Source: an uncultured Muribaculaceae bacterium (lineage in GTDB: Bacteria > Pseudomonadota > Alphaproteobacteria > Rs-D84). From it: a DNA stretch of 64,000 bases. The translations under genes and the position numbers were made by a program. Position 1 is the first letter of the stretch. Every line of letters begins with the position of its first letter. Below, piece by piece: positions 1,054 to 55,071 of the stretch. The notes beneath the pieces were generated by a model. That model saw only the letters and a list, made by a program, of their open reading frames with translations, was not told the DNA's origin and made no database searches. Where the stretch lies: assembly GCA_964619545.1 (NCBI GenBank), contig CAZUED010000001.1, forward strand, positions 49,898 through 113,897, read 5' to 3'.

Positions 1054-1054
1054 T

Positions 1055-1780: not shown

Positions 1781-1786
1781 AAAAAT

Positions 1787-1816
1787 AAGTGGATAAATTT
1801 TATCCACTTATTTTTT
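1787..1816. terminator. Bidirectional rho-independent terminator: an 11-bp palindrome (aagtggataaa/tttatccactt) with A-run and T-run flanks
   Basis: Perfect inverted repeat 1787-1809 followed by TTTTTT. On the reverse strand it also follows the stop of the 1815..2402 gene. Confidence 0.6.
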
Positions 1817-2402: not shown

Positions 2403-2535
2403 CTGTATATTTGCGCGAGAACGACGGCAAGGAAATTAATAAAAGAACGAGTATTTTCGCACAACAAGTATTTCAATACTTGTAAGCGGGAATACGAAGT
2501 TATTTATTTAATTTAATGCCGCCGCTTCGCGGTGA

Positions 2536-5124
<2,589 letters not shown>

Positions 5125-9940: not shown

Positions 9941-10222
9941 ATGACAAGTCGCGAACATCTGGAGCAAATTTCACGCAGTATGAATCTTACTTCATATCAG
10001 TTATATATTTTGGAAATGAACATAGATAAATATGATTTACATCGGCTTGTAAAGCATGGCGATTTTTTATATGCGCCATATAAAGTTGAATTTTCGCATA
10101 GTTTCAAAGATGCCATAAAAGAAATACTTTTTGGTCGACGTGCAGATTTAATAGGTCCAGATAGACTTTTGGTTTTTAATAAACGTGGAATAAAAATGCG
10201 TCGTGATGGAAGCTATCGCTAG
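9941..10222 (+). CDS. Hypothetical protein (93 aa)
   Basis: ORF with GAGG 5 nt upstream of the ATG. The tracked start at 9884 would overlap the terminator hairpin. Confidence 0.3.
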   Translation: MTSREHLEQISRSMNLTSYQLYILEMNIDKYDLHRLVKHGDFLYAPYKVEFSHSFKDAIKEILFGRRADLIGPDRLLVFNKRGIKMRRDGSYR

Positions 10223-26898: not shown

Positions 26899-27731
26899 AA
26901 CACGTAAAAATTTCAGATAAAATTATTTTTGGAAATGATTTGCCATTTGTTTTAATTGCAGGACCTTGTGCAATGGAATCGCGCGACCATGCAATGTTTA
27001 TGGCAGAAAGCCTGATTAAAATTACCGATAAATTGGGAATACCATTTGTATTCAAAACCAGTTTTGATAAAGCAAACAGAACATCATTATCATCGGGACG
27101 TGGCGCAGGATTGGATTATGCTATGTCGGTATTTGATGAAATTCATGAAAAACTGGGATGTGCTTGTATAACAGACATTCATTTGCCGGCTCAGGCAGAC
27201 ATTGTTGCACCGCACGTTGATATGTTGCAAATTCCAGCTTTCTTGGCGCGCCAGACAGATTTGCTGGTTGCCGCTGCAAAAACTGGGAAACCGGTTAATG
27301 TTAAAAAACCTCAATGGTCTGCGCCAGCCGACATGAAGTCTACATTGGGCAAAATGTATGATTCTGGAAATCAAAACATTTTGCTGTGTGAACGCGGCAC
27401 CAGTTTTGGCTATAACAATTTTGTTGTTGATATGCGCAGCATTCCATGGATGTCTGCATTGGACGCGCCAGTCGTAATTGATGCAACGCACGGAATACAA
27501 CAGCCTGCATCCAGTGGATGCACCAGTGGTGGTGACAGACGCCTTGCCCCGGTTATTGCACGCGCAGCATTGGCAATTGGAGTTGCGGGTGTATTTACCG
27601 AAGTGCATGATAATCCAGAAATTGCGCCTTGTGATGGACCAAATATGATTAATCTTTCAGATATGGAAAATCAATTGCGTGTTTGGAAAGAACTTGATGC
27701 AATCGCAAAAGAAAATCTTATAAAGTTATAA
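26895..27731 (+). CDS. kdsA: 2-dehydro-3-deoxyphosphooctonate aldolase (Kdo8P synthase)
   Basis: FVLIAGPCAMES, KTSFDKANRTS, and C-terminal DATHG / FTEVHDNP. Confidence 0.9.
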   Translation: MKHVKISDKIIFGNDLPFVLIAGPCAMESRDHAMFMAESLIKITDKLGIPFVFKTSFDKANRTSLSSGRGAGLDYAMSVFDEIHEKLGCACITDIHLPAQADIVAPHVDMLQIPAFLARQTDLLVAAAKTGKPVNVKKPQWSAPADMKSTLGKMYDSGNQNILLCERGTSFGYNNFVVDMRSIPWMSALDAPVVIDATHGIQQPASSGCTSGGDRRLAPVIARAALAIGVAGVFTEVHDNPEIAPCDGPNMINLSDMENQLRVWKELDAIAKENLIKL

Positions 27732-31444: not shown

Positions 31445-32881
31445 TTGCACAGCAATATGCGCGGAAATTTTTTGCTGCAAGCTTTGCTGGCAATCGCCTT
31501 GGTGATGTCATTTATGTCTTTTATGGCGCCAAAATTAGCCGCGCGAAAAAGTGATGCCACCATGGCTGCAATTGCACGCCAGACAGAAACTGCTGCCCGC
31601 GCAGCTCGGCAATTTGTCCGTGCCAACAAGTCAAGCATTGTTTATGGTCCACGCACCATTTCAGGTGATGGATTTTCCGATTTGCTAGAACCTTTTGGTC
31701 TGCCATTGGGTTTTATTCCATTAACCACAGCACAACAAAAAATTTCGCTTTTGACATCAAAAAATGATTCTGGTGTTATTGCCTTGATAGTTTTGCAGGG
31801 TGGTAAAATTTCAGATGTAAAGCGTCATGAATTAATGTCTCGAATCGGGCCCGAGGCTGCAATTGCGGATGATGATGGATTGTTACATGGAATTGGGGGA
31901 TGGGAAAAATCCCTTAAAGATTTTGGTATAAAACCAGATACATCAGCCGTTTATATGCTGGTTCCTGCAGATGATGATTTTTCAGAATTGATCAGACGTA
32001 ATGCTAATGATTTATCAAGAAATAAATTTCATATTGACCTTTCTATGGCAGGTATGTCTATAAAAAACATCACATCACTTTCTGCAAGGAATGCAGAACT
32101 GGGCACCGCAAACTTTGGAACTTTATCCATAACTGGTTCCAGCGACGAGAGAAAGTTTAAGAACAAGATAGATTTAGTATCCGCCACGCGCGCAGTATTT
32201 CAGACACGCGATGGTGCAAATGCTTTGAACATTTCCAGGGGTGATTTAAATGCAAAATCATTATCCGCGCAAACTCTTTTCAGATATGGAATTCCAGGCT
32301 CGGTTGATGCTGGGTCAACTTCAATCAATTCATTATCAATGGCTGTCGGTCGATCAGGATTTATAGGAATGTATGATTGGGATGTTCACAGCGATGTAAT
32401 TTTAAATAATGTTTCTATAGATACTGAACATCTTGAAATAAATGGATTTGTGAATGCTTCGCGTGGTCAGGATGTATTTATTGATAAAGATGAATTAACA
32501 TATTCAACAAAAAGTGGGGTCGAGACAAGAAAACTTACTACCGCATCAATAACTTTACGGGACCAGGTTTCCAGCGCATTGCTTTCTGGATCTGATGGCT
32601 CTGTAATTCTTGACATTCGTCCAGCAGGTGTTTCTGTTTTAACAGATGTTTTATCCGACAGCATAAATAACGACGCATTTGAGATACTTAAAAACCCAAC
32701 CGCCGATGATGGTGCATTAATTGGTTGCAGAAATGTAATTTCTGCTTTGCCATCGGCACCTGCATACAATTCCAAATCCGCTGCGCAAAACATAGTATGC
32801 CAATTTGTTTTCTGGCAACGTCTTGAGCGTCGTATAAACATAAAGCAGTGTATGCTAGACGGGGGCAGCAATTGCGGATGA
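31445..32881 (+). CDS. Large prepilin-like protein A (478 aa): short leader MHSNMRG, then a hydrophobic NFLLQALLAIALVMSFMSFMAP segment
   Basis: TTG start with a strong SD AGGAGGG 7 nt upstream. Has a class-III signal-like N-terminus and a beta-rich remainder; paralogous to the next two genes. Confidence 0.5.
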   Translation: MHSNMRGNFLLQALLAIALVMSFMSFMAPKLAARKSDATMAAIARQTETAARAARQFVRANKSSIVYGPRTISGDGFSDLLEPFGLPLGFIPLTTAQQKISLLTSKNDSGVIALIVLQGGKISDVKRHELMSRIGPEAAIADDDGLLHGIGGWEKSLKDFGIKPDTSAVYMLVPADDDFSELIRRNANDLSRNKFHIDLSMAGMSIKNITSLSARNAELGTANFGTLSITGSSDERKFKNKIDLVSATRAVFQTRDGANALNISRGDLNAKSLSAQTLFRYGIPGSVDAGSTSINSLSMAVGRSGFIGMYDWDVHSDVILNNVSIDTEHLEINGFVNASRGQDVFIDKDELTYSTKSGVETRKLTTASITLRDQVSSALLSGSDGSVILDIRPAGVSVLTDVLSDSINNDAFEILKNPTADDGALIGCRNVISALPSAPAYNSKSAAQNIVCQFVFWQRLERRINIKQCMLDGGSNCG

Positions 32882-34176
32882 TGAATAAATTAAAGTTTTT
32901 TTATAATAAATATATTATGGGTGAAAAAAATTCATCCCATGTAATTCATTATTCATTAACTTGTCAGCGGGGTGCTGGATTGTTAGAAACTTTGCTGGCA
33001 ATCGCAGTTGTTGGTGCAGTTCTACCCTTTGCTTATACCAGTGCTATAGATATGAGTCACAGTATTGCAGATACTGCCGAGGCTAATCGGGTTCTGGCAT
33101 GGCATGATCCTGTGATGGCATATGTTCGTAAGAATCAGTCAGATTGGCCGCAAACGGCACAAATAGAATTTGACGAAGAGGAAGTTGTTATTATGGGGAC
33201 TGGAGACAACAGATTATTGTATCCATATGCCGGGTTTATTGAAAAGCGTCAGGGTTCCGGCGGTTCGGTTATAAATGCATATTTAGCATTTCGCCCAGTT
33301 GGTATAAATGAAATCCGCGTTGCAAACATTGCAAAAAATCTGGGTTCTGATGCTGCTGTTGCCAGCAATGGTGGGAATGCATCCAGCTCTGCTGGATGGA
33401 GCATTTATTCCGAGCTATTTACAGATGGTGATTTGATTTTTAGAATTTCTGACATTTTGGGTGATGATGATGCATACAAGTATTTGCACAGAACTTATTT
33501 GGACGATCCAGAATTAAACACAATGCGTCGTGATTTGGATATGGCAAAAAATAGCATTTTTGACATTGGGAAAATAACAGCGCAAACATTGAATGCTACA
33601 AACTCGAAACTTTGGTTTATTGAAACTCCACATATTCAGACGTCCGAAATTTATTTTCCCGAAGGATCGTCAATTGATGCGTCTAAAGCTGTCTTTGGTT
33701 CGGTTAATGTGAACGGAGACGTTAATGGACTGCGAAAAATTACGGCTGGAAAATTAAAAGGCGCTGCCGTACTTGCTGGTTCGCAGTGGTCTTCACGTGG
33801 CGATGTTGTAGTAGATTCAGTAAATGTAAATGGGCCTGTTAATGTTCAGCGAGACATGGTGGTGCGCGCAGAAAGTGCGCGCAGTATAAGTGGTTTCGCC
33901 GGTGTGCGTGCAAATTCCGTTGCAACGCCATATATTTTTGCAGATCAGATGTTTTTTGCCAGTGGTTATGGGATAACAATTTCAAGTGAGTTGTTATATT
34001 CTTCTACTGGTGTACCAATAAAATTAGGAAATTGGAGCTTTCCATCAACAAGCAGTCCAAAGTTTTCCACGCTGACATTGTATAAATCCAATGGAAAGGA
34101 ATTAGGCCAAGTATTGGGTGTTCCAAATACCAAAGATGTTGCGTCGATAATGAGAAGTGGATGGAAAAATCTGTGA
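32878..34176 (+). CDS. Large prepilin-like protein B (433 aa): 32-aa leader MMNKLKFFYNKYIMGEK...CQRG, then AGLLETLLAIAVVGAVLPF
   Basis: ATGA overlap with gene A. Has RG followed by x4-E and a ~20-aa hydrophobic stretch; the C-terminal GSVNVNGDVNG...VNVNGPVNV repeats suggest a beta-helix. Confidence 0.5.
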   Translation: MMNKLKFFYNKYIMGEKNSSHVIHYSLTCQRGAGLLETLLAIAVVGAVLPFAYTSAIDMSHSIADTAEANRVLAWHDPVMAYVRKNQSDWPQTAQIEFDEEEVVIMGTGDNRLLYPYAGFIEKRQGSGGSVINAYLAFRPVGINEIRVANIAKNLGSDAAVASNGGNASSSAGWSIYSELFTDGDLIFRISDILGDDDAYKYLHRTYLDDPELNTMRRDLDMAKNSIFDIGKITAQTLNATNSKLWFIETPHIQTSEIYFPEGSSIDASKAVFGSVNVNGDVNGLRKITAGKLKGAAVLAGSQWSSRGDVVVDSVNVNGPVNVQRDMVVRAESARSISGFAGVRANSVATPYIFADQMFFASGYGITISSELLYSSTGVPIKLGNWSFPSTSSPKFSTLTLYKSNGKELGQVLGVPNTKDVASIMRSGWKNL

Positions 34177-35537
34177 ATCATAAATTAAGGAATTTTTATA
34201 ATAAATATATTATTGGTGAGAAAATTTCACCAGATGTAACACACCATTCACGTGGCGGGATGATGTTGGAAATACTTTTGTCTTTGGCTATTGCTGCGGC
34301 CGCATTGCCTTTTGTTCTGCGGCAATTAGATAATCGTACGCACCGCGCTGAAAATGTAAGCATAGCGCGCGACATTGCTATGACTCGTGATGCTTTAGAA
34401 CGTTATATGGATGCGCGGAAACGCGAATTATTGGCGCCAACCGGATCATTCGTTACGCGTGTTAAAATGCGCGATCTGATTGAATACGGAAACATTCCAA
34501 AAAATTATGACAAGTTCCAAGCCCGTATAATAAAATCCAGGGATGCAAACGGCCATGCTGTTTTATCAGGTATGGTTATATTTGACTCTGCGGATATATC
34601 ACCAGTGCGAACACGGGAAATTGCAGAACTTGGTGGACAGGGTGCTGGATTTGTAGAACGAAACGAAGCATACAGCGCATTCGGAACATGGCGTAGTAAG
34701 ACAAGTATTTTTGATGCGCAATTTGGCAAGGATTCGGTAGTAGAAAGCACAGACACAATTTTGTCTGGTGGTGACTTTCTTTGGAGATTGCCTTCGAATG
34801 AGCCACTAGACGGATCAATGGCCAGCGATTTTTCTATGGGTGGTAATAATATAAATGACGCAAAGCAAATAGATGCGTATAGCGCAGATTTTAGTGAGAT
34901 TTTGCATGCGGATTTAATTTCCGCCAGAAAAGTTCAGATTACACCTCGTGCAAATTTTGAATCGGCATTAGTTGTATCGGGCGAAGCCCTGGTAATGGGC
35001 GCAATGACATCTGATTCAAGAAATGCGACAATAGGCTCGGAAGTTTTTTTAACTGGCCAGGCGCGTATATCCAGACTGGACACAGGCGAGCTTTGGGTCG
35101 GCGATCTGAATCTGAATGGGCTTTCTATTGGTGGAAGCGAGAAACCTGGAATTTTGAAAGTTGGTCAGACCATAGACATTACTCGCGGCCGTATAACGGC
35201 GCGTACGGCAACTATTGGATATAGCGGTTCAGTTGCACCAAAAATTTCAGTGACCGAACGTATAGAAGATTCAGGCAATCAAGCATATTATTGGGACTTG
35301 AAATCTGGGGATGCCAAGTTTTTTGATGTTTCTGCAGGGCAGCTTAATCAAATGATGAAAAATGCAATTCGCGCCGAATCAAAAAGTCCAAAAACAACTA
35401 CAGAAACAATAATTAATCAAGTTGCCGCAAATAATAATGCGACCATTTCAGATTACGCACGTGCATTGGGCGAAATACAAAGCAAGGTTATGATGAAATA
35501 TAACCGCTTGAAATTAGAGCAAGCCGGTGTAAAATAA
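34161..35537 (+). CDS. Large prepilin-like protein C (458 aa): leader MEKSVNHKLRNFYNKYIIGEK...HSRG, then GMMLEILLSLAIAAAALPF
   Basis: Overlaps the gene B stop. The leader motif KL+xFYNKYI(I/M)GEK is shared with gene B. An alternative GTG start at 34173 gives MNHKLRNFYNKY. Confidence 0.5.
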   Translation: MEKSVNHKLRNFYNKYIIGEKISPDVTHHSRGGMMLEILLSLAIAAAALPFVLRQLDNRTHRAENVSIARDIAMTRDALERYMDARKRELLAPTGSFVTRVKMRDLIEYGNIPKNYDKFQARIIKSRDANGHAVLSGMVIFDSADISPVRTREIAELGGQGAGFVERNEAYSAFGTWRSKTSIFDAQFGKDSVVESTDTILSGGDFLWRLPSNEPLDGSMASDFSMGGNNINDAKQIDAYSADFSEILHADLISARKVQITPRANFESALVVSGEALVMGAMTSDSRNATIGSEVFLTGQARISRLDTGELWVGDLNLNGLSIGGSEKPGILKVGQTIDITRGRITARTATIGYSGSVAPKISVTERIEDSGNQAYYWDLKSGDAKFFDVSAGQLNQMMKNAIRAESKSPKTTTETIINQVAANNNATISDYARALGEIQSKVMMKYNRLKLEQAGVK

Positions 35538-35542: not shown

Positions 35543-36028
35543 ATGAAAGTTGCTTGTCCTTTTTGTAAAGTAGAGTATTGTGTGCGAAATCAAAATTGCC
35601 GGTTGTTTCAATGCGCAGTTTGTGGTTGCACATGGCGTGCACCATCGCGTGAGAAAAATTCGCGAATATGGATTTTTCTTTTGTCGTGTTTTGTTTTATT
35701 GTTAGCAGTTTTTTCTTTAGTTGCTTTATTGCTTTGGATACCGCACACTAACGAGGCATTGTCAGTCCGGATGGATTCGGCCGTGCGCGCTGATGAATTT
35801 TTGATAGTGTCAGGCGTTGTTTCTAACAAATCGGAAAAATTATATGGCGTTCCAGATTTGATTGTATCAATGAAAGATAATCGGGGCGTGGAAATTTCAT
35901 CTCAAAAATTCTCGCCACCTACACCATTATTAGATTCAGGTGAAGAAGCGGACTTTTCAGTCCAGGTTCGAAATGTGCCGGTAGGGGTAGATAAAATTTC
36001 GGTGAAATTTAATAATACAGGAAATTAA
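35543..36028 (+). CDS. MJ0042-type zinc-ribbon / DUF3426-like membrane protein
   Basis: CPFCKVEYCV...CAVCGCTW zinc ribbon, then a TM helix, then a ~90-aa C-terminal domain. Confidence 0.45.
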   Translation: MKVACPFCKVEYCVRNQNCRLFQCAVCGCTWRAPSREKNSRIWIFLLSCFVLLLAVFSLVALLLWIPHTNEALSVRMDSAVRADEFLIVSGVVSNKSEKLYGVPDLIVSMKDNRGVEISSQKFSPPTPLLDSGEEADFSVQVRNVPVGVDKISVKFNNTGN

Positions 36029-36030
36029 CA

Positions 36031-36501
36031 ATGATTAAAATACTCAACAAATTCTTAGTTGCATTTATCCTTTTTAATTTTGCCGCGCATGCTGATAATG
36101 TTGTGTTACAAAGACCAAGTATATTTTCCACCAGCACAGATTGGGAAAGCATTACAGGTTTGCGATACGGCCAATTTGATTTGTCTTTTATCAGGGATAA
36201 ATCAATCGGGAATAATGGGATAGAGTTATATTTTCTAGATGGTTTTCCGTGTATAGGTCAGGCGCAAACTGCGCGTGCATGGATTTCGCCCAGCAAAATT
36301 TCAGGCGCAGATGAATATGTAAAAATGTATATCAGCTGTGTGCAGCGTCCGACAGAATTACGTTTTGCATGGCGCGAAGCTGCACGTCAAGATTATCAAA
36401 GTCGGACCACAGGAATTATGACTTGTAATATAACAGGACAAGGCCGTTTAATTCCTATTACATTGAACGATTGTGTTAAGGGGAAAAACTGGGATGAGTG
36501 A
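36031..36501 (+). CDS. Secreted hypothetical protein (signal peptide, 4 Cys)
   Basis: N-terminal LVAFILFNFAAHA signal; no recognised domain. Confidence 0.35.
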   Translation: MIKILNKFLVAFILFNFAAHADNVVLQRPSIFSTSTDWESITGLRYGQFDLSFIRDKSIGNNGIELYFLDGFPCIGQAQTARAWISPSKISGADEYVKMYISCVQRPTELRFAWREAARQDYQSRTTGIMTCNITGQGRLIPITLNDCVKGKNWDE

Positions 36502-42871: not shown

Positions 42872-43585
42872 CTAGCTGACAATTCCATCTTTGATAGTAA
42901 TAATCCTATCGGCCCGTTTGGCCAGGTTCATATCATGAGTTACAAACAACATTGACATATGTGTCTGCTTGGTCAGAGAAAGAAGTAAATCAAAAACATT
43001 TGCGGAATGGGTGGGATCAAGGCTGCCAGTAGGCTCGTCCGCTAGCAGGATTTCAGGATCATTTGCCAGTGCGCGTGCGACCGCAGTACGTTGCTGTTCG
43101 CCACCAGACATTTCGGCTGGTCTGTGATCAGCGCGATGTAAAACATTTGCAGCCTTTAACAGCTTTCGTGCACGTGCGCAAGCGAGGTCCTCATCAATTC
43201 CATTTGCCAGCATGGGCAACATTACATTTTCAAGTGCGGTAAAATCTTCCAGCAAATTATGTCGTTGATAAACAAAGCCGAGTTTTGTGCGTCGCATTGC
43301 TGTGCGTTGATCTTCGGTCATTTTGTTTGTTGGAATCCCGGCAATTACAATTTGCCCGCCGCTGGGTTTTTCCAGCAATCCAACGCATTGCAGTAAAGTT
43401 GATTTACCACATCCAGATGGGCCAACCAGTGCGATAATCTCGCCACGCAGTAAATCAAATCCGCCGCCACGTAGAATGTGCAAAGGTTGTCCGCCTTCGA
43501 TAAAAGATTTTCTTATTCCAGCAACCGACAAGACCGAGGCGCGCTTTTTCACAGATGATAAAGATTTTAGTATTGATGCTGCCAT
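42872..43585 (-). CDS. lolD: Lipoprotein-releasing system ATP-binding protein LolD
   Basis: Walker A GPSGCGKST, signature SGGEQQRTAVARAL, Walker B LLADEPTGSLD. Confidence 0.85.
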   Translation of the reverse strand: MAASILKSLSSVKKRASVLSVAGIRKSFIEGGQPLHILRGGGFDLLRGEIIALVGPSGCGKSTLLQCVGLLEKPSGGQIVIAGIPTNKMTEDQRTAMRRTKLGFVYQRHNLLEDFTALENVMLPMLANGIDEDLACARARKLLKAANVLHRADHRPAEMSGGEQQRTAVARALANDPEILLADEPTGSLDPTHSANVFDLLLSLTKQTHMSMLFVTHDMNLAKRADRIITIKDGIVS

Positions 43586-43586: not shown

Positions 43587-44840
43587 TTATTCGTTCCTTA
43601 AAACTTCCACTGGATCTGTTTTTGCTGCCTTCCATGCAGGGTAAAGCGTTGCCAAAAATGCCAATGCAATCGCAACAAATGCAATTCCTGCAACATTCCA
43701 GAATTCTATTTTTGATGGCAGCTCGGACAGAAAATACAAATCAGCCGGGAATAAATCGCGCCCAGTTGCCCATTGGAAAAACTGCCGGATTGGTTCAATA
43801 TATTTTGCAACCAGAACTCCAAGGATTGTTCCGAAAGCTGCGCCGATTATTCCGATACTGCTGCCGCACAAGATAAAGATTTTCATCATGCTGCGACGGG
43901 ACACGCCAAATGTGCGCAATACAGCAATGTCACGCGACTTGTCTTTTACCAGCATTACAAGAGATGACACAATGTTAAATGCTGCGACAATCACAATTAA
44001 AAGCAAAATTAAAAACATAACATTTGATTCAACCTGCAGGGCACCGACAAATCCACGATTTAAATCACGCCAATCACGTACAATAAATCCCGTAGGAAGA
44101 CTTGCGGCCAATGCATCTCGTACCTGAGTTGTTTTATTTGGGTCGGTTAAAAATAAATCTATGTGCGAAACTCCATCAGATGAGTCCAAAAATTTTTGTG
44201 CAGTTTCAAGCGGCATGAAAATATATCCGGAATCATATTCATACATTCCAGCAAAAAAAGTAGTAGCCACAGGATAAGACTGAATCCGTGGTATTGTTCC
44301 AAATGCAGTTGCTGTGCCGCCGTTCGCGCTGATAAGCGTTGCCGGATCATTTCTGGTTAATCTTAAATTTCTGGACAAGGCCGCGCCCATTACAAGTTGT
44401 CCATCTTTTACATTGGATATAGGTGCGCCGTAAATTTTTGTGCCAGTTTGAAATTTATGCTCTAAATCGCCCATTCTGATTCCGCGTACCATGGCGCCAG
44501 AGTTATTGCCATTTGCAGAAACCATTACTTGGCCTTCCAAAACAGGAACAATGTCAGTCGTTGATGCTGCAACGACTTTATTACTTTTCATCTTTTCAAT
44601 CAGATAATCAAAGTCTTTGATTGCGCCGTCTTGATGATAAACAACAACATGGCCATTCATACCAACGATACGTGAAAGTAAAGTGTCGTGAAATCCGCCC
44701 ATAACAGACATAACAACAATAAGCGTTGCAACGCCCAGGGCAATTCCCAATAAAGATACCCAAGAAACTACACTGCCAAAACCGCGCCCCCGGGCGCGTA
44801 GATACCTGAATGCAATTTTCTTTTCAAGACTACTAAACAT
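43587..44840 (-). CDS. lolC: Lipoprotein-releasing system permease LolC/LolE (FtsX-like)
   Basis: N-terminal FRYLRARGRGFGSVVSWVSLLGIALGVATLIVVMSVMGGF and a C-terminal FtsX-domain four-helix bundle. Confidence 0.85.
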   Translation of the reverse strand: MFSSLEKKIAFRYLRARGRGFGSVVSWVSLLGIALGVATLIVVMSVMGGFHDTLLSRIVGMNGHVVVYHQDGAIKDFDYLIEKMKSNKVVAASTTDIVPVLEGQVMVSANGNNSGAMVRGIRMGDLEHKFQTGTKIYGAPISNVKDGQLVMGAALSRNLRLTRNDPATLISANGGTATAFGTIPRIQSYPVATTFFAGMYEYDSGYIFMPLETAQKFLDSSDGVSHIDLFLTDPNKTTQVRDALAASLPTGFIVRDWRDLNRGFVGALQVESNVMFLILLLIVIVAAFNIVSSLVMLVKDKSRDIAVLRTFGVSRRSMMKIFILCGSSIGIIGAAFGTILGVLVAKYIEPIRQFFQWATGRDLFPADLYFLSELPSKIEFWNVAGIAFVAIALAFLATLYPAWKAAKTDPVEVLRNE

Positions 44841-44842: not shown

Positions 44843-46204
44843 TTATTCCTCTAAATACTCGCGCAGTTTATCACCAGAAATTTTTGGTGTTCTTGTTGCT
44901 TCGCCGGGCTCTACTATTGAAACAACTCGTGGGCTCATAAACACAACCAACTCTGCAAATGGATTTATCAATGTTTCGGGTTCGGTCACAAAGCTGTGTG
45001 TTGGAATTCCAATTATCACATAGTTATCACCCAGGCTGGATGGAACATTAAAGTTTGCCAATTCCCCATCGCTGGTGCGAAGTGTTATTTTAGCATCAAG
45101 TTTTACCATGTCTGCATACTGACCATACTTTCCAGTCGCGCCAACAATCAAGTCCGTTTCCAATCTGTCCTCGCGGGAACACTGACCAATGTCAAATCTG
45201 CTTTGCCAGCCATTTGGTATTACAAATGTTCCTTGGGAAATTAAAACTACATTAGCTTGTTGTGATAAGAATGATTGTAATGTTTTTGTGTTTATCTCTG
45301 GGGACACCACCAGTAATCTGCCAACTACGCCAGGTATCGACATTTTTACATTGTCATCACCGAATGCTGGCAACATATTCATCCATACTATCGGATTATC
45401 AGTGCGTGGATATACGCGATATACATCCATGTCCCATGCAACTAGGAATTTTTTGTTGCCGACATCTGCAACAATTGCGCGAACTTCGCGTTCGGTTTGA
45501 TAATTTCCCTCGAATACCAGGGTTTTATCCTGCCAGTTAGTAAGCAGATTTCGCAATTCAGCACCACGCATTGCATCGATCAACGCCATTATCATATGCT
45601 GGTCTTTTGGCATTTTCATCAGCCATTTTCCGCGTGATGAAATCCGAATTTCCTTGGCATCGTCATCATAAGAGTAATAAACTTTTCCCAATTTGCAGAT
45701 AAGCTCTACAGCGTCTTCCAATGTTCCGGATTTAATTTCTCCGCTAATCAGATCTGGCATATTGTCGGATACAACTACTTTTATCTTGGTTCCTTTTAAA
45801 AGGTTTTCTAAAACATCTGGGACATTCTTTTTCTTGAATGCAAAATCTTCGACGTCAAAATCAGGCAGATTATCGCCCTTGTTCAATCGCACGATTTCAA
45901 CAGGTTGTGCCGGGATAACAGACATTATATTTTGGTTATCCCAATCAACTTTACATCTTTTTGGAAGGTCTATGGCAAAACGCCGTGCGGTATCAGTTGT
46001 CAATCCAGCTTTGCGTGGAAATATAGGAACTGAGTATTCATCTACAATTGTGTTTTCAACAACCTCTATCGTATCGTATTGGACCTGATTTTGCTGACGC
46101 ATTTGTGTGCATCCAGCAAGTACAAGGCACAGAATACATGTCACAGGTAATATTTTTATATATTTTATATTCATTGTTGGTTCCTTGTTTCTATGCTTTG
46201 CCAT
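44843..46204 (-). CDS. Secretin-like outer-membrane lipoprotein (Secretin_N-like plus C-terminal secretin motif), co-operonic with lolCD
   Basis: Lipobox LVLAGC; N-domain-like NVPDVLENLLKGTKIKVVVSDNMPDLISGEIKSGTLEDAVELICKLGKVYY; C-terminal ETLINPFAELVVFMSPRVV resembles the secretin ELVIFVTPRIV signature. The likely true start is MNIKYIKIL at 46174. Confidence 0.5.
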   Translation of the reverse strand: MAKHRNKEPTMNIKYIKILPVTCILCLVLAGCTQMRQQNQVQYDTIEVVENTIVDEYSVPIFPRKAGLTTDTARRFAIDLPKRCKVDWDNQNIMSVIPAQPVEIVRLNKGDNLPDFDVEDFAFKKKNVPDVLENLLKGTKIKVVVSDNMPDLISGEIKSGTLEDAVELICKLGKVYYSYDDDAKEIRISSRGKWLMKMPKDQHMIMALIDAMRGAELRNLLTNWQDKTLVFEGNYQTEREVRAIVADVGNKKFLVAWDMDVYRVYPRTDNPIVWMNMLPAFGDDNVKMSIPGVVGRLLVVSPEINTKTLQSFLSQQANVVLISQGTFVIPNGWQSRFDIGQCSREDRLETDLIVGATGKYGQYADMVKLDAKITLRTSDGELANFNVPSSLGDNYVIIGIPTHSFVTEPETLINPFAELVVFMSPRVVSIVEPGEATRTPKISGDKLREYLEE

Positions 46205-46212
46205 TATGCATT

Positions 46213-46520
46213 TCAGATGTTCATAACCTTTTCGAATTCTTCCAAAGTCATTTCATAGATTGGTTTGTTACTGGGGGTTGTTAAATTTTTCATACCTTGA
46301 AATTCTGTGTTATATTTTTTTACCAAAGCTTTTAATTTAGCGTCACCAGTATTTAATTTTTCCCCGTATGCGTTCAGCATTTCCAATATATCTGCTGCAA
46401 AAAATCTTCCTACGTAATTCTCGGGTGCTATACCGCCTTTTTGGGTGCGAACAGCCGCCGACAAAGTTTTTAATGCCTCATAAAAACCTGCTATTCTGAT
46501 GTATCTTTCTTCGGCGGTCA
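46213..46520 (-). CDS. Hypothetical acidic protein (~102 aa), first gene of the secretin-like/lolCD operon
   Basis: ORF starting at MTAEERYIRIAG; the upstream extension overlaps a neighbouring gene. Confidence 0.3.
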
Positions 46521-46669
46521 TCTGCTTCTCCTTCCTGGACTGCATTATAAACTTAAAACATTTGCTTTCGCAAGTCCAAAAGGATGACGGATTGATAATA
46601 AAAGGCAATGGACAAAGCGCAGATAAATTTAGATTGCCAAGAATTGTATTTTTAGTTTATAATTTGATT

Positions 46670-47056
46670 GTGAAAAAAATATGTGCCTTATGCCTTGTTC
46701 TGTATGCATTGTCAGGTTGCTCGTCTGCCAATCGTGGTTCCATTGACGATGCGACGGTTTTAAATTGGGAAAATGATGCCGTAACCACCGAGCAATTTGT
46801 CCGTGATCATAAAAGTTGCCTGGGGGTGACGCGTCCGGCCCATATGCCACGTTCTAGACTTGCAAAACTTATCAGCCCGAACCAGTCCGGATTGATGCCC
46901 GATTGGGATGGTTTATGGGTTACATTTCAATCAAATGAAAGTCCTGATACGGGCCAGCGCTCGCTGATGTCTGTGCCGCCAAATACCAGCGCTCGGTCGG
47001 TCGGGTCATATCGTAGATGCATGATGAGACGTGGTTATTTATTAAGAGCTTATTAG
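46670..47056 (+). CDS. Small lipoprotein (GTG start; VKKICALCLVLYALSGCSS lipobox)
   Basis: Classic lipoprotein signal peptide. The tracked ATG at 46499 would overlap the divergent gene. Confidence 0.4.
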   Translation: MKKICALCLVLYALSGCSSANRGSIDDATVLNWENDAVTTEQFVRDHKSCLGVTRPAHMPRSRLAKLISPNQSGLMPDWDGLWVTFQSNESPDTGQRSLMSVPPNTSARSVGSYRRCMMRRGYLLRAY

Positions 47057-47134: not shown

Positions 47135-47821
47135 ATGAAAAACAAATTCCTGTTTTGGCTGTCGTTAGCCGTAGCGGTGTTGCTGGCGGTTTATCTTGGT
47201 GTGCGCATCAGCATGGTTCTGATGGGTGTGGGTGGGTCGCTGTCATCGGTAAAGAAAATTTCTGTACATTCCAGTAATGGTGAGGTTGCCGGTCTTATTT
47301 CGCGCCTGGGTATTGAACCTGGGGTTCGGCATGTTGATTTGGATCAGGCTTTGACGCGTATCGCGGCCGATCCAGATGTGGCAAGTGCCGGGGTGCGTCG
47401 AATGCCTAATGGCGAAATAAAAGTTCGTGCAAAAATGAGGGTTGTTATAGCCAGTTGGACAGATGGGGAACATTATTATCCTTTGGATGATACGGGTGCG
47501 CCGATAAATCGGCCATTGCCGGAAAGACCGGCAAATACTTTGATTTTTTCTGGTCAAGTCCCAAGCGACATTTCATCAGCTATAGCAGCATTAAAGCAGG
47601 CACCAGGGCTGTTTTATAGAATAGACAGAGTGGAGTTTGTAGAAGGCAGGCGTTGGGACATTTTTTTGCTGAATGGAATTCGTATTATGCTGCCCGAGGA
47701 AAATTTTGCCAGCGCTGCCGAAAAAATAGAAAAGCTGAATAAACAAAATATGATATTGGACAGACAAATAACACTTTTGGATTTGCGTGATCCAGCGCGC
47801 GTACTTGTAAAATTAAAATGA
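47135..47821 (+). CDS. ftsQ: Cell-division protein FtsQ (short POTRA-domain form)
   Basis: N-terminal TM helix, then VRHVDLDQALTRIAADPDVASAGVRRMPNGEIKVRAKMRVVIASW, a POTRA/FtsQ pattern; immediately upstream of ftsA. Confidence 0.7.
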   Translation: MKNKFLFWLSLAVAVLLAVYLGVRISMVLMGVGGSLSSVKKISVHSSNGEVAGLISRLGIEPGVRHVDLDQALTRIAADPDVASAGVRRMPNGEIKVRAKMRVVIASWTDGEHYYPLDDTGAPINRPLPERPANTLIFSGQVPSDISSAIAALKQAPGLFYRIDRVEFVEGRRWDIFLLNGIRIMLPEENFASAAEKIEKLNKQNMILDRQITLLDLRDPARVLVKLK

Positions 47822-49587
47822 ATCTGACAGATGGTGCATTTTTATGTTTAGACATTGGATCGTCCGGCGTTCATGCAGTTGCCGTACGTGTCAGTTTTGG
47901 TCGTATCAAAGCATCTGCAAATGCGTTTGTTGAATCAAAGGACGCAGTTTGGGCATTAAAATCATCGGTGGATAGCCTGGAAGAGCAAATTGGCGCGCGC
48001 TTTGACTCTGCATTTGTTACCGGAAATTTTGGTGCAATAAAGTCAGAAATTTTTTCGCGAAAAACATCATGGGCGTCTGAGCATAAAATTACCCCGCAAG
48101 ATGTTTTAGAGCAGGTGTCAGATGCAACCGAAGATGGATTTTCAATCTTACATATAATTCCGCTACGCTATGATCTAATCGGATTTCACAACATTGCAAA
48201 TGTGGTTGGACAAACTGATTGTGCCTTGCTTTCTGTGTTTCATTCAATTTCTTATTCTGATCAAGGATTGCTGCGGGCAAAATCTGCTTTGCATGGCGCT
48301 CATTTAGAGTCAGATGGATTTTTTGATCCATCATTTATTTTGGCGGCCAGTATACGTGAGTCTGCTGAATCATCCGTTTTTATAGATTTTGGTGCCCAGT
48401 TCACCAGTGTTTCACTTTGGACGCCCCGCGGACCAATGCTGATGGCAAAAGTGCCTTTGGGTGGTGCGCGTATTACAAAAGAAATTGCTAAAGCTTTTGG
48501 CGTGCCAGTTGCCGAGGCCGAACGACTGAAAATTTCCGGTATGACATTGATGCGTACGGATATGGATAGATTCACACCCAGCGATGCAAAGCATGACATT
48601 ACCAGATTTGAATTAAACGAGGTGACTGGTTCGGTATTTTCAGAAATCTTGGGTCAAGTGCATGATGTGTTGGACGCGGGAATACAAAAATACAATCCGG
48701 TAAAACTTTATATCAGCGGCGGCGGCGCACAAATTTCCGGACTAGACACAGTATTGGAAAAAGAATTTTCCATGCCAGTAAAAAACCTGGGCGCCTTTGG
48801 AATTGCCAGCGCATTGGCTGAATTTGTCTGGAACAATGAATCTTCGCGCGTTTCTGTTTATCTGGCGCGCAGAAAAAAATGGGATAAGGTTTTCGGATTC
48901 TTGTTCGCACCTTTGCGCTGGCGGTTAAAAACTGGGCGCAAGCGCTTGGTGCCAATTATGCCCAGCACTCTTGTGTGGGATATGCGTAATGGTACTACCT
49001 ATGCAAAATTTGCATCGGCGAATATTAGTATGATTCACGTTGATGTAATGGACGGATTTTATGTTGAAAAAATTGCTAGCGGAATTGACGAGCTTCGATT
49101 TATTCGTGCACACACAAAATCACATTTGCATGTTCATCTTATGACTGAAAATCCGGTCAGTTGGGCCGCGGAAGTAATTGAAGCCGGCGCAGATACAATA
49201 ATTGTTTCATCTGGAACTAATGGGGTGGTGCGGGCATTGCGTGAAATCCGGACCTCAGGTCGGCGTGCAGGAATAGCATTACATCCAAATACCCCATTGG
49301 AAGTAATTGCACCAGTGTTACGCGAAATTGACGAAGTTATGGTTATGTCTGTTGTTCCTGGGGCATCAGGACAATGTTTTATTGAATCTTCACTTTCTAG
49401 AATTGCGTCGCTTTATAATACCAGACGTCGTCATGGTTTGCATTTCAAGATCTCAGTTGATGGCGGAATAAATCCTGAGACAGCAAAAAAATGCTGGGCC
49501 GCAGGTGCAGATTTGTTGGTCGCGGGAAGCTTTCTGGCATCTGCCCCCGACTTTGCTGGCGCAGTTCAAGAACTGATCAGGAAATAA
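47818..49587 (+). CDS. ftsA: FtsA (actin-like cell-division protein) fused in frame to ribulose-phosphate 3-epimerase (Rpe); 589 aa
   Basis: N-terminal FLCLDIGSSGVHAVAV, ISGGGAQISGL and an amphipathic WDKVFGFLFAPLRW helix (FtsA membrane-targeting helix). This runs without a stop into IMPSTLVWD...IHVDVMDGFYV...VDGGINPETA (Rpe TIM barrel). Confidence 0.7.
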   Translation: MNLTDGAFLCLDIGSSGVHAVAVRVSFGRIKASANAFVESKDAVWALKSSVDSLEEQIGARFDSAFVTGNFGAIKSEIFSRKTSWASEHKITPQDVLEQVSDATEDGFSILHIIPLRYDLIGFHNIANVVGQTDCALLSVFHSISYSDQGLLRAKSALHGAHLESDGFFDPSFILAASIRESAESSVFIDFGAQFTSVSLWTPRGPMLMAKVPLGGARITKEIAKAFGVPVAEAERLKISGMTLMRTDMDRFTPSDAKHDITRFELNEVTGSVFSEILGQVHDVLDAGIQKYNPVKLYISGGGAQISGLDTVLEKEFSMPVKNLGAFGIASALAEFVWNNESSRVSVYLARRKKWDKVFGFLFAPLRWRLKTGRKRLVPIMPSTLVWDMRNGTTYAKFASANISMIHVDVMDGFYVEKIASGIDELRFIRAHTKSHLHVHLMTENPVSWAAEVIEAGADTIIVSSGTNGVVRALREIRTSGRRAGIALHPNTPLEVIAPVLREIDEVMVMSVVPGASGQCFIESSLSRIASLYNTRRRHGLHFKISVDGGINPETAKKCWAAGADLLVAGSFLASAPDFAGAVQELIRK

Positions 49588-49710: not shown

Positions 49711-52449
49711 ATGAGAATAAAAAAAGCAATAATCGTTGGTTTGATGCTGCCTTTAGTATCTGAAATTTGCGCGATACCGGCGGGTGCTGTCAGCTATGTG
49801 AATACGCCGACCGCGCGCCCCAGCACTACGGCGCGTATGCCGACATTGTTGACAGGTTCAGTTGCCAGTACGGCTTATTCTACTGCGACTAATGCTGGAT
49901 TGGCTGCGACGTGTGCAAATCCATTACCGGAAAGGCTGACCTCTAACAGATGCATTGACAGATACGATTCGTGCCTGCGCCAAGAAAATGTCTGCGGCGA
50001 ACATTTTGAGCTGTGCTATAACTTAAAACAATTTAACAAGTCCCGCATAATGTGTCAGGATTATTTGGCACAATGTCCCGCCGAAGCAATCAAAGCCATC
50101 TTTGGAAATTCTGTTACAACATCGGATGATTTTTCCGCGGCGAACCGGGCGATGTGTGATGGCGAATCCGTTTTGATAAAAAGATCTTTTTCTCCATCAC
50201 TTGGTGACATTGCGGTCGCCGGTGATAGCAGAATAGACATCGCTATAAAAGAGGGTAGAAACTGGGCTGCTGCAAATAGCGTTAAAACTTGTAACAAAGC
50301 TGCTGATGTTTGTATTCAGAATGCTTGCCAAGGTTCTCCACAGAAATGTATTTCTTTGAATGGATTTTCAGATATAGACACGGCCGAGATGGTTAATATA
50401 GCAACAGCTGGCGAAACCACTTTGCGCTTGAATGCAAAAATGTTGGAAACTTGGATTTTCAATATGGGCTGGGATGACAGCAATGTAAAAAATTATCTGA
50501 AAGAGCAATGCCGTGAAACTATTGGTGCAAACGAATGGTGCTTTATGGTGACAAATGGCAAGCCAGCCAAGGAAGCAGACCTGGTTGATAATTTTAACAT
50601 CCAGGAAGTTTTCACAGACATTATGTATAATGGTGTTGGTGCCCGTTGGAAAATGTCACAATCCAAGATAAAAGAATGGGCGGCAGCTGCAACCAAAAAT
50701 TCTGTAGCGCAATGCCAGGCTGCATTGACCGATTGTGCAATTAATGCATGCGGTGAAGGATCGCGCGCACGGTGCTATGGATTGGCAAAAGATGGCAATT
50801 CGGTCAGTATAAAGAATAAAGCAGGTTCTGACATCGAAGGCCAATGCAAGAATTTGATAGAAAACAATCAATACTGCAAGGATGTTTTCCGTAACAAAGA
50901 AAATGGTTTGGATGGGGATGTCTGGACCCAGGTTTGGACAAATGATGTTATGGGGACCATAGTTGGTCTGGATTCCGATTTGCAAAAAATGTTTAACGAA
51001 GAGGCTGTGGCAGAAATGCGCCGTAGCTGTCAGGCTCAGGCTGAAAAATGTGTTATGGACGAATGCGGAAGCGATTTCTCGCGCTGCTTTATAACCAGCA
51101 GTGATGCTAAAAAGGCAGGCCAGGTTGCTTTTGCATCTGGCAAGGTAACCAGCAGTTTGTTTGCCGGCGGATTTGATGAAGCCTTGGCTCGTGACCTGTG
51201 CATACTGAAAGTAAAACAAGTCACAGATTGTAATGACTATTTTGATGTTCAATATGCAAAACAATCAAGTGGCAAAAGTGCTGATGCGTGGGCCACATCC
51301 AGCACGGCTCGTAATGCTTGGCTGGGCGCTGCGAACAGCACGACAGAAGACAATGTATGCCGAGTGACCGAAACCTATCTGGATAAATATGATGTTTCGG
51401 GCAATGCGATTGACCCAACGGTTAAGTTGGCGTCCAAGGTAAAGGTTTGCGCAGCCCAAGAACGCGGTATATTTGATGGATTGTTAGGCGATATAAACAA
51501 GCGCGCGAATTCGGTTCTAGAACGCGAAGCAAATGACATTAAAAACGCTTGTGAAAACAGCAATGTCAAGGGCTCGACCGCAAAAGATTATATCTGGGCG
51601 GCATTTGACGGGTTGGGCGGATCTGACGAATATAGTGGATTCAGTGAAGTTCGCGAAACAAGTAATCCGTTTGATGGATTCTGTGCAGTTCGTGTAACAA
51701 TTCGTTCTAATAATTCCAAAGTTGTCAGCGCACTTGGTGGTAATAAAACTATGTATTATGCAAAAGGCACAACTATGCCTTGCCTGGGCTTGACCGCGGA
51801 CGAGCTGGAAAAAGTCGAGCGCGCAGTTGCATCTGATGTAAGGTTCTGTGGTTCTGATGAAACAAATGCAACTCATGGCTGTGTAGAGAGAATGACAGGA
51901 TTGCAAAAAACCCTGAGTATAGGTGGCGCGACCTTGGGGGGCCTAGTTGTTGGTGGCTTGGGCGGGGTCATGGCTGGTAATGCGATACAGAATAAAATAA
52001 CCAGCTCGGGCAACAATCTCAGCGAGGCTGAACGGACTATATTAAACAATTGCAATTCTTGTTTGTCATCCCAAGGTGTTGGATTCAGCAGCAAAAACGC
52101 ATGCAGTTCTGCCAGTATGGGTGACAACGATGATGGCAAAAGCAATGTTGTTGCAAAAAATCTTTGCCAAGCAAAGGCGAACGAGCTGAATGCCAAGGCG
52201 AAAAAACAAACAAACAATCTGATGAACTTTGCCAGCACTGGCGGAATTACTGGGGCAAGTGTTGGTGCTGGATTGTTAGGTTTGACCGGCGGACTTTTGG
52301 CTGGTAATGCGATTGATCAAAATGAAAAGGATAAATTAGCAGAAGCCCGTCAGGCAGCCATAGATGATTTTAACGCTAAGACAGATATAAATTGTTATAT
52401 CGGCGGTAAAAAAGTTGCCGCGTATGGTTCAGATATGGTTATAAAATAA
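49711..52449 (+). CDS. Giant secreted cysteine-rich repeat protein (912 aa, 39 Cys) with two C-terminal glycine-zipper segments
   Basis: Signal peptide; three tandem super-repeats each carrying C-x6-C-x4-C-x6/7-C followed by C-x9/10-C; C-terminal LSIGGATLGGLVVGGLGGVMAGNAI and GGITGASVGAGLLGLTGGLLAGNAI. Confidence 0.55.
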   Translation: MRIKKAIIVGLMLPLVSEICAIPAGAVSYVNTPTARPSTTARMPTLLTGSVASTAYSTATNAGLAATCANPLPERLTSNRCIDRYDSCLRQENVCGEHFELCYNLKQFNKSRIMCQDYLAQCPAEAIKAIFGNSVTTSDDFSAANRAMCDGESVLIKRSFSPSLGDIAVAGDSRIDIAIKEGRNWAAANSVKTCNKAADVCIQNACQGSPQKCISLNGFSDIDTAEMVNIATAGETTLRLNAKMLETWIFNMGWDDSNVKNYLKEQCRETIGANEWCFMVTNGKPAKEADLVDNFNIQEVFTDIMYNGVGARWKMSQSKIKEWAAAATKNSVAQCQAALTDCAINACGEGSRARCYGLAKDGNSVSIKNKAGSDIEGQCKNLIENNQYCKDVFRNKENGLDGDVWTQVWTNDVMGTIVGLDSDLQKMFNEEAVAEMRRSCQAQAEKCVMDECGSDFSRCFITSSDAKKAGQVAFASGKVTSSLFAGGFDEALARDLCILKVKQVTDCNDYFDVQYAKQSSGKSADAWATSSTARNAWLGAANSTTEDNVCRVTETYLDKYDVSGNAIDPTVKLASKVKVCAAQERGIFDGLLGDINKRANSVLEREANDIKNACENSNVKGSTAKDYIWAAFDGLGGSDEYSGFSEVRETSNPFDGFCAVRVTIRSNNSKVVSALGGNKTMYYAKGTTMPCLGLTADELEKVERAVASDVRFCGSDETNATHGCVERMTGLQKTLSIGGATLGGLVVGGLGGVMAGNAIQNKITSSGNNLSEAERTILNNCNSCLSSQGVGFSSKNACSSASMGDNDDGKSNVVAKNLCQAKANELNAKAKKQTNNLMNFASTGGITGASVGAGLLGLTGGLLAGNAIDQNEKDKLAEARQAAIDDFNAKTDINCYIGGKKVAAYGSDMVIK

Positions 52450-54003: not shown

Positions 54004-55071
54004 TTAAATTGCCTCGAAAGATACTATCCACATTGCCGCAAAGGATGTGATTATCAGTGGGGGCAGACCAGCTGCCAAAATCGTTGGCAGTGCGCCGCTG
54101 GTGCCCAGTGCGCCAAACACATTCATTACGAAATACAACCCAAAACAAACCATAATTCCAGTGCCGAATTTTACGCCGAATGAAAAGTTTCTGCGTTCGC
54201 GTGTTTGTGAGAAAGCTGTTCCCAAAGTTGTCATTGCAATCAATGTCAAAGGCAAAAATAGCAGGGTCCAGAACTGCGTTAGATGACCCCGAACTGGCAA
54301 TCCCATTTGTCGCATATTTTTTATCATTTTGGGCAGGTGCCAGAACGAAACCTGATCAGGCTTTAGATGTTTTTCTAGAAAATTCGCAGGTGTTGCCTGG
54401 GATTTACGCGACCAGTTTTTAATCTGCACTGGCGTGCCATCTGCACCATAAGCGCGGGCAGATTTTACCAATAATTCACCATTAGTCATTGTTAGTTTAT
54501 CTGTTTCAATTCTTTGCCGGAAACCAGAATTACTATCCTGAACAAAGGCGGATACATCAGAAAATACCAGTTCACCAGTTTTTTTCTGTTTGACGCCCTC
54601 GGCACGCATTATGAATGATCCATTTTCATTAGTTTCACGCAACCATATCGCATCATCAGACAAGTCAAAGCTTGCAATGTCTATATTTTCAGCGCTTTTA
54701 CTGACAGCATATGGATTGATCACACATGTTGTAAACACGCCTATTAAAAATGCCGTTATTATAAAAGGTTTTATTTTTTGCCATGGGGATAATCCTGCAC
54801 CTGAAATAATTACCGATTCGGACGAAGTGGTTAAATTATAAGCTGTCAATAAAGTTCCCATAAATACCGCCAGTGGCAGAAAAATCGGAATATATTCCAA
54901 TAGGCTGCTAAAAGAAACACTTGCTGCAATCAAGGCAGAGCTTTCACGAGGCAGCTTTTCAACAAAGGTTATCGCAAAAATTATTCCTGAAATAATCAAA
55001 AGCACCAACCCCACTCCGGATAAAAACCGGCGGGCCAGAAAAATGCTTAAAATTTTTGGCTTTATTCTCAT
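54004..55071 (-). CDS. LPS export permease LptF/LptG family (YjgP/YjgQ)
   Basis: FLARRFLSGVGLVLLIISGIIFAITFV N-terminus, six TM segments with a large periplasmic loop. Confidence 0.65.
   Translation of the reverse strand: MRIKPKILSIFLARRFLSGVGLVLLIISGIIFAITFVEKLPRESSALIAASVSFSSLLEYIPIFLPLAVFMGTLLTAYNLTTSSESVIISGAGLSPWQKIKPFIITAFLIGVFTTCVINPYAVSKSAENIDIASFDLSDDAIWLRETNENGSFIMRAEGVKQKKTGELVFSDVSAFVQDSNSGFRQRIETDKLTMTNGELLVKSARAYGADGTPVQIKNWSRKSQATPANFLEKHLKPDQVSFWHLPKMIKNMRQMGLPVRGHLTQFWTLLFLPLTLIAMTTLGTAFSQTRERRNFSFGVKFGTGIMVCFGLYFVMNVFGALGTSGALPTILAAGLPPLIITSFAAMWIVSFEAI

Follow-up and report, generated by a model that had tools for sequence, protein, structure and literature searches.

A 64,000-nucleotide stretch of contig CAZUED010000001.1 from the alphaproteobacterial order Rs-D84 (hereafter, the window) carries on its minus strand an operon of four closely spaced genes: a 102-amino-acid (aa) open reading frame (ORF), the gene of a secretin-like lipoprotein, lolC/E, and lolD (Table 1). 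The second gene is the subject of this study; its product is almost certainly a homologue of secretins, and the loops that form their gate are missing from it. The ORF given in a preliminary description of the locus (44843..46204, minus strand, 453 aa) is present, and the true start is most likely the ATG at 46174 (MNIKYIK, with the ribosome-binding site AAGGA), yielding 443 aa; this start is favoured because the database copies and the homologues begin there.

The same description correctly placed lolC/E and then lolD downstream on the same strand: the stop codon of the secretin-like gene is followed by lolC/E after 2 bp, and lolC/E by lolD after 1 bp. The sole terminator-like site within the operon on the minus strand is a weak one inside lolC. 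The ribosome-binding site AGGAAGGAG and the ATG at 46521 of the 102-aa ORF lie directly 3' of a promoter-like site. This ORF had been called acidic, which does not hold, as its isoelectric point is 7.9, with 13 Asp and Glu versus 14 Lys and Arg residues.

Table 1. Coordinates of the operon, of the domains encoded by the secretin-like gene, and of the prepilin-like genes in the window (residues in ORF numbering).
Feature	Coordinates	Strand	Basis and remarks
Promoter-like site TTGCGA-18-TATAAT	46544..46573	-	Consensus scan, 10/12 match; consensus match only; 5' of the four-gene operon
102-aa ORF, no signal peptide; 'domain B' of the partner family	46213..46521	-	Reciprocal profile matches
Lipoprotein signal peptide and lipobox LAG↓C, Cys32	46109..46174	-	Sequence; alignment A1
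N-terminal linker, aa 33–116, with near-invariant Cys84	45857..46108	-	Invariant block VPIFPKKAALTTDTARRF..LPKRC.VDW in A1
N0 (STN-like) domain, aa 117–190	45635..45856	-	
N3-like ring-building domain, aa 191–260	45425..45634	-	Model secondary structure (strands, two helices) aligned to A2 secretins and BfpB N3
Shortened secretin domain, aa 261–431	44912..45424	-	hhalign Prob 100, E 1.1e-39; anchor intervals
Short C-terminal tail, aa 432–453, and stop codon; no S domain	44843..44911	-	Model: terminal helix only
lolC/E-type lipoprotein-releasing ABC permease	43587..44840	-	TIGR02212, 413.6 bits (cutoff 362); Pfam MacB_PCD and FtsX
lolD ATPase	42872..43585	-	Best NCBIfam match TIGR02211 LolD with 239.6 bits, short of its 307.75 equivalog cutoff; Pfam ABC_tran
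Three paralogous prepilin-like proteins, 440–480 aa	31445..35537	+	N-termini RG↓xxxL(E/Q)xLL; candidate cargo or fibre

Relationship to secretins

Direct searches do not assign the secretin-like protein to any secretin family. Neither Pfam Secretin (PF00263, none even at E<=1) nor Secretin_N (PF03958) matches it; NCBIfam yields no secretin equivalog, only FecR_C and the EscC N-terminus at 12–13 bits (aa 119–182; EscC, 12.5), and neither TIGR02520 (PilN family) nor TIGR02519 (MshL) matches. Similarly, no secretin is found in the PDB by phmmer with the sequence or by hmmsearch with the family profiles A1 and A5.

Profile-to-profile and fold comparisons give a different result. The profile A1, built from 41 homologues and searched against a library of 1.84 billion protein representatives, retrieves only 161 clusters, the distant ones among them (E from 1e-11 to 1e-4) being Pfam-Secretin-positive proteins, for which MshL and PilN are the top NCBIfam models, with scores below the cutoffs. 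Alignment of the family by hhalign with a profile of 19 of these bridging secretins (A2) has E 1.6e-25 for a shallow family profile, and Prob 100 and E 1.1e-39 over 339 columns for a 55-sequence one; the aligned columns span N0 through the C-terminal ELV..PR strand. The C-terminal segment AELVVFMSPRVV, in which the preliminary description saw a secretin signature, indeed aligns here with the ELVIV..PR.I motif of the Pfam-positive secretins. The first AlphaFold2 model, based on 41 close homologues, was poor (predicted local distance difference test, pLDDT, 63.7), and was superseded by a second one from the diverse 55-sequence alignment (pLDDT 89.3, predicted TM-score, pTM, 0.78). With both models, the best significant Foldseek matches in the PDB are all secretins (top 16 for the first, top 29 for the second), including PilQ, BfpB, InvG, GspD, pIV, EscC, and XcpQ.

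An unrelated lipoprotein resembling secretins by chance would explain the lack of significant direct hidden Markov model (HMM) or PDB sequence matches, but hardly the E value of 1e-39 over 339 columns, the uniform Foldseek results from two independent models, or the Pfam-positive intermediate sequences; this explanation is effectively refuted and has a negligible chance of being true. The direct negatives do not prove non-homology, because the profile-profile and fold evidence is positive; curated HMMs fail because of deletions that remove ~60 residues of the secretin domain. For the same reason, the check proposed in the preliminary description, in which the lack of significant hits to PF00263 and PF03958 was to speak against a secretin, is too blunt: taken formally for Pfam and NCBIfam, it goes against the assignment, whereas the other methods recover a genuine member of the superfamily. 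We have very little doubt that the protein is a secretin homologue.

The lipobox LVLAGC, also reported earlier, is present throughout alignment A1, and its Cys32 is kept in 37 of the 42 aligned relatives. It is followed by a highly conserved 85-aa region, N0, an N3-like domain, the secretin domain, and a short tail (Table 1). The protein thus has both ring-building domains, N0 and N3, that are a feature of the secretin superfamily. The segment previously likened to Secretin_N corresponds to N0, an STN-type domain, and not to the Pfam Secretin_N domain.

The lipidated type IVb class, named in the preliminary description, is also the right neighbourhood. Profile A2 has BfpB as its best PDB match (E 7e-33), compared to 1.6e-13 for GspD and only 4e-4 for RcpA, and its consensus opens with a lipobox; in one of its members, P0212, the secretin gene shares a cluster with a 258-aa gene and with genes of the ATPase T2SSE and the platform T2SSF, in this order, which is the typical type IVb layout. 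Foldseek aligns the secretin-like protein itself with BfpB at E 6e-9. Among canonical secretins, it is thus closest to the lipoprotein secretins that serve type IVb pili, of the BfpB/PilN/MshL type. BfpB consists of a lipidated linker (LG), N0, N3, and the secretin domain, and has no N1, N2, or S domain (PMC12531336). The same lipobox Cys and the same order linker–N0–N3–secretin, devoid of N1, N2, and S, appear to be shared by the secretin-like protein with BfpB (enteropathogenic Escherichia coli, PDB 9U5S) and the PilN(R64)/TcpC/MshL group, a lipobox at the N-terminus and no S domain being the type IVb liposecretin trait. By its position before N0, the linker (aa 33–116) would be equivalent to the LG domain.

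Other likenesses and differences concern the genes around. The gene bfpG adjoins bfpB upstream, and a small gene likewise lies directly upstream here, although, unlike BfpG/TcpQ, its product has no signal peptide, and no similarity to TcpQ or BfpG is detectable. The cluster contains no T2SSE, T2SSF, or peptidase genes, which canonical relatives such as P0212 have; and, in comparison with the BfpB/PilN group, the gene is chromosomal, core, and far more conserved.

Among the remaining secretins, the HxcQ-type liposecretins of type II secretion systems (T2SSs) carry a lipid anchor in place of a pilotin and are self-piloting. Delivery to the outer membrane by the Lol pathway is expected for HxcQ and, by analogy, would be expected for the protein described here; however, the HxcQ gene is part of an entire T2SS operon, and the secretin domain of HxcQ is gated and of full length, whereas here the operon includes lolCD. 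Phage f1 pIV and GspD, PilQ, and InvG (PF00263) share the N0–N3–secretin core, the C-terminal strand motif, and the strands of the inner and outer barrels. RcpA/CpaC of the Tad pilus, the usual alphaproteobacterial pilus secretin, is different, as it needs the TadD pilotin, is gated, and is encoded together with the CpaF ATPase.

Missing gate loops and conserved cysteines

Sequence anchors common to the family and the canonical liposecretins are the first strand, FxIG, GD..IIG, and ELV, and medians of the intervals between them were compared for 52 family members and 19 canonical liposecretins. From the first strand to FxIG, the interval is 22 residues in both sets and 21 in BfpB. From FxIG to GD, it is 49 residues (46–55) in the family versus 88 (87–105) in the canonical set and 92 in BfpB; from GD to ELV, it is 21 versus 41 and 39, respectively. 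The gaps in the hhalign alignment were mapped via P0212 onto BfpB (chain index +17 for precursor numbering), in which gate 1 comprises residues 406–430 and gate 2, residues 461–479 (domain limits, PMC12114550). The first deletion, of 20 residues with the junction at E345/D346, corresponds to BfpB 409–427, within gate 1; the second, of 21 residues with the junction at S378/D379, corresponds to BfpB 458–482 and spans gate 2; the third, of ~20 residues around N414/P415, lies ahead of the last strand, at the site where, as we presume from the general secretin consensus, other secretins have an amphipathic loop. Hence, relative to BfpB, ~40 residues mapping to Gate 1 and Gate 2 and ~20 before the last strand are gone; the gate residues and those preceding the last strand are absent from all 52 family members checked, so the gate, a feature of the secretin superfamily, is missing. 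In the AlphaFold2 model, the four inner-barrel strands are predicted to be kept, with tight turns between them.

The channel of solved secretins is sealed by the well-conserved Gate 1, whose loop is always bounded by two hinge glycines ~30 residues apart; gate mutants of pIV are leaky, including to large solutes (PMC8563730). The equivalent glycines of the secretin-like protein, G340 and G355, are separated by only 15 residues, and the short connector that replaces Gate 1 bears Cys342, found in 53 of 54 sequences. Only one further cysteine is near-invariant, namely Cys84 of the N-terminal region (52/53), and we infer that the two may form a disulfide. The loss of the gate loops was not noticed in the preliminary description, nor was the conserved family of upstream partners considered below. 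No description of a secretin without gate loops, or anything relevant on "orphan secretin," was found in the literature.

These observations raise the alternative that the protein derives from secretins but is no longer a pore, and serves as a periplasmic or outer-membrane scaffold or adaptor in a structural or envelope-biogenesis role, with the N0/N3/barrel-sheet fold kept. Both gates and a portion of the last loop are absent from all members, which would agree with that, as would the compact and confident prediction of the monomer, the lack of motor genes near the secretin-like gene, a level of sequence conservation exceptional for an outer-membrane pore, and the pair of Cys84 and Cys342, which suggests an intramolecular staple. 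On the other hand, the strands of the outer barrel and the four of the inner one are kept and align with secretin strands, the ring-building N0 and N3 domains are intact, and no precedent was found of a non-pore protein with a full secretin domain. We consider such a scaffold rather unlikely, and a ring-forming secretin without a gate is the reading developed below.

Conservation, gene order, and neighbouring genes

Homologues of the secretin-like protein form 1231 database clusters, all of them unnamed, and the gene is present in 314 species-level genomes. The carriers are labelled Alphaproteobacteria, "Rickettsiales," or Candidatus Enterousia, the latter being the order Rs-D84, whose members have genomes of <1 Mb, are without most biosynthetic pathways and without standard transporters, and presumably rely on partners (PMC12306168). 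Across the 80 Rs-D84 loci that were kept, to which identities and gene-order counts refer, the secretin-like protein is 63–94% identical, compared to ~75% for LolC, ~45% for FtsA, and ~38% for FtsQ; by these figures, the constraint on it is unusually strong for an outer-membrane protein. More distant members (20–42% identity) come from other uncultured alphaproteobacterial bins with GC contents of 36% to 66%. In Rs-D84 and related uncultured Alphaproteobacteria, the gene belongs to the core genome and is strongly conserved.

Several records with this locus are titled "uncultured Muribaculaceae," "Bacteroidales," or "Bacteroides fragilis" (L002–L004, L010, L012, L026, L053, L070). Such Bacteroidales-type titles on an alphaproteobacterial locus point to mislabelled or contaminated bins; one of these records, OZ246409.1, is a complete 716-kb chromosome.

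The order 102-aa ORF, secretin-like gene, lolC, lolD is found in 80/80 Rs-D84 loci, while the wider flanks vary. lolC and lolD also follow directly in two more lineages, L082 (41% identity, GC 36%) and L087 (36% identity, GC 52%), where the codons overlap or adjoin and the other neighbours differ; in a neighbour-joining tree, both form one clade with Rs-D84. In members outside that clade (L083, L084, L085, L088, L089, L090), an unrelated protein of 165–280 aa is encoded downstream, with no counterparts across lineages. Thus, the tie to the lipoprotein-sorting transporter suggested in the preliminary description is real as an adjacency, old and retained, but is confined to one clade and does not extend to the whole family. 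No secretin–lolCD operon and no functional description of the family were found in the literature.

The linkage suggests that the protein might itself be a component of lipoprotein trafficking with LolCD, e.g., an outer-membrane acceptor in place of LolB, or an exporter of surface lipoproteins. Pointing this way, the gene is operonic with lolC–lolD (1–2 bp apart or overlapping) in three lineages with otherwise different flanks, and lspA lies close by in L082; Alphaproteobacteria are not known to have LolB, and T2SS secretins serve as the exit route of some lipoproteins. However, the linkage holds in one clade only, no LolA/LolB-type fold or HMM match was obtained, so that a LolB-like identity was rejected, and LolA is present in the genome of the distant member L090. 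A liposecretin that is a mere client of the Lol system explains the linkage more economically, and a trafficking component seems very unlikely.

The upstream gene appears to be a family-wide partner, of which the 102-aa ORF corresponds to the C-terminal domain. A profile of the 80 Enterousia copies matches the C-terminal domain of the upstream protein in L082 (E 6.5e-7) and L083 (E 4.3e-6); the reciprocal profile, made from distant loci only, matches the 102-aa ORF of the window (E 0.007), with 87 fetched loci matched in all. The distant partners have 320–620 aa, are partly acidic, lack a signal peptide, and are encoded immediately upstream wherever the upstream gene was examined. The 102-aa ORF has no Pfam, NCBIfam, or PHROG match.

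In five distant loci, a well-conserved ~330-aa regulator with two HTH_3 domains is encoded upstream of the partner and secretin genes (L082 4678-5676, L084 4214-5206, L087 7245-8246, L089 4930-5919, L090 5458-6447); the L082 and L084 copies are 39% identical, and the window has no counterpart. Just 5' of the regulator–partner–secretin cluster of L084, two large polytopic proteins are encoded (737-4052), one with a weak TrbL/VirB6 match.

Xre-type helix-turn-helix regulators in distant clusters, and nearby genes for an S24 peptidase and zeta-toxin-like proteins, might be expected of a secretin that belongs to a prophage (similar to inovirus pIV) or another mobile element. Such an origin was rejected, as neither the secretin-like gene nor its neighbours match PHROGs and the gene keeps a fixed core-genome position among housekeeping genes in all 80 loci at the high identity given above; nor were Zot-like ATPase or coat genes seen, and GC content does not deviate. 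It is exceedingly improbable.

Divergently from the operon, the window encodes a 154-aa lipoprotein (46592-47056, plus strand, lipobox LSGC), 64–82% identical across the more divergent Rs-D84 loci and higher in the closest ones. It matches nothing in Pfam, NCBIfam, or PHROG, and distant lineages lack a counterpart; conceivably, it partners the secretin in this lineage only. Farther along the plus strand, the 912-aa product of 49711-52449 is secreted, rich in cysteine, and matches no family; cysteine-rich secreted proteins (484 and 329 aa; 1762-4206) also occur close to the secretin cluster of L082. At 47818-49587 (plus strand), FtsA is fused to ribulose-phosphate 3-epimerase in one 589-aa ORF (Pfam FtsA and Ribul_P_3_epim), and, of the fetched Rs-D84 loci on contigs that extend that far, nearly all match this query, apparently from end to end. 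Further envelope genes of the window encode an AsmA-like protein (faint match; 10219-12741, minus strand) and an LptF/G permease (54004-55071, minus strand), and 26143-27731 (plus strand) has CTP_transf_3 and DAHP_synth_1 Pfam matches, read as KdsB and KdsA. The reduced genome thus seems to keep an outer membrane with lipopolysaccharide, consistent with a secretin residing there.

At 31.4–35.5 kb, the N-termini that were earlier described as prepilin-like do resemble class III signals: the three paralogues have RG↓xxxL(E/Q)xLLxLAI at their N-termini, with G↓GMMLEILLSLAIAA as the signal-like stretch. Among homologues of the third paralogue (34161..35537), the one searched, the Gly and Glu of this motif are conserved; only 25 such homologues were found, against 1231 for the secretin, and NCBI gives one of them the name "type II secretion system protein." For the first paralogue (31445..32881), a weak match to the HpsB pseudopilin was obtained (E 0.047), and none of the three matches Pfam. 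Pilin-like proteins are a plausible reading of this trio from sequence. No motor genes accompany it in the window or in L092, where the gene order is kept. The trio is followed by genes for a 161-aa protein with a zinc ribbon and a transmembrane segment (weak FxLYD match) and for a 156-aa secreted protein (35543-36501, plus strand; in L092, 11402-12433); the order of the five genes ahead of a pseudouridine synthase gene is conserved in L092. These prepilin-like proteins are the only cargo candidates within the window; their passage through the secretin, proposed in the preliminary description, is a hypothesis whose sole tie is the shared chromosome, and any particular cargo is far less certain than the homology to secretins.

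Proposed function and significance

The protein is best classed as a member of the secretin superfamily close to type IVb liposecretins that departs from them both in the gate and in the usual genomic association, its operon being partner–secretin–lolC–lolD and not a type IVb pilus operon. The overall picture that we favour, with somewhat better than even confidence, is a new, highly divergent, gate-less subfamily of lipoprotein secretins (liposecretins), delivered by the Lol system and assembled into rings. After Sec export and lipidation, the co-expressed LolCD would extract the protein from the inner membrane, and it would reach the outer membrane without a pilotin, as a self-piloting liposecretin. 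There, it would assemble into a ring that keeps the outer and inner barrels and lacks the central gate, and the pore may be open or plugged otherwise, either by a permanently inserted fibre or by the N-terminal region tethered through Cys84.

Several observations weigh against this picture. All solved secretins have elements that are missing here, namely both gate loops and the stretch ahead of the last strand, presumed to be the amphipathic-loop region (PMC8563730); no direct match to Pfam Secretin, an NCBIfam secretin equivalog, or a PDB secretin sequence was obtained; global superposition on secretin protomers is poor (TM ~0.15–0.23); and the compact fold predicted for the monomer (pTM 0.78) would also suit a non-pore role. 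The lolCD linkage, being confined to one clade, may reflect inherited gene order with no functional coupling. Finally, there is the matter of the motor. The preliminary description advised looking for type IV pilus or T2SS ATPase genes elsewhere in the genome, and none was found over the range covered: no ATPase, platform, or prepilin peptidase gene is detected by Pfam in the window, or within ±10 kb of the secretin-like gene in some ten lineages, and scanning the fetched loci (1.59 Mb) for motifs reveals no T2SSE ATPase, T2SSF platform, or peptidase. In a published survey, type IV pilus genes are reported for UBA9783, with no mention of any in Rs-D84 (PMC12306168).

The lack of T2SSE and T2SSF genes nearby in any lineage examined, together with that of the gate loops, could also indicate a stand-alone, constitutively open, wide outer-membrane conduit that takes up DNA, metabolites, or macromolecules of partner cells with no pilus motor. 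This would suit the shortage of biosynthesis and standard transporters in Rs-D84 and its presumed dependence on partners (PMC12306168), and pIV gate mutants do leak large solutes (PMC8563730). Yet an ungated pore of secretin size should harm a cell in the bile-rich gut, the motors could sit elsewhere in the genome, and transport is here a conjecture from sequence; we regard such a permanently open conduit as distinctly unlikely. A related variant, a gate-less, motor-free ring that forms a wide outer-membrane conduit, permanently open or differently plugged, and that would serve these obligately partner-dependent, transporter-poor bacteria in the uptake of macromolecules or metabolites, or in placing lipoproteins supplied by LolCD on the cell surface, in both cases with the signal-peptide-less partners, is unlikely as well, if slightly less so.

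In every solved secretin, gate loops keep a very wide hole in the outer membrane from being lethal. A large family that lacks both loops and is under strong purifying selection would imply either another mode of closing, or that an open secretin is tolerated or even exploited. The family is annotated as hypothetical in >1200 database clusters and 314 species genomes because it is invisible to Pfam and NCBIfam, and therefore surveys show no sign of a secretin in Rs-D84. Through the operon with lolCD, the co-expression of a liposecretin with the machinery that delivers it becomes open to testing. Rs-D84 (Ca. Enterousia) bacteria are widespread in the gut, have genomes of <1 Mb, and show no obvious transporters for nutrients; a channel conserved in their outer membrane would be a concrete candidate for their interaction with partners.

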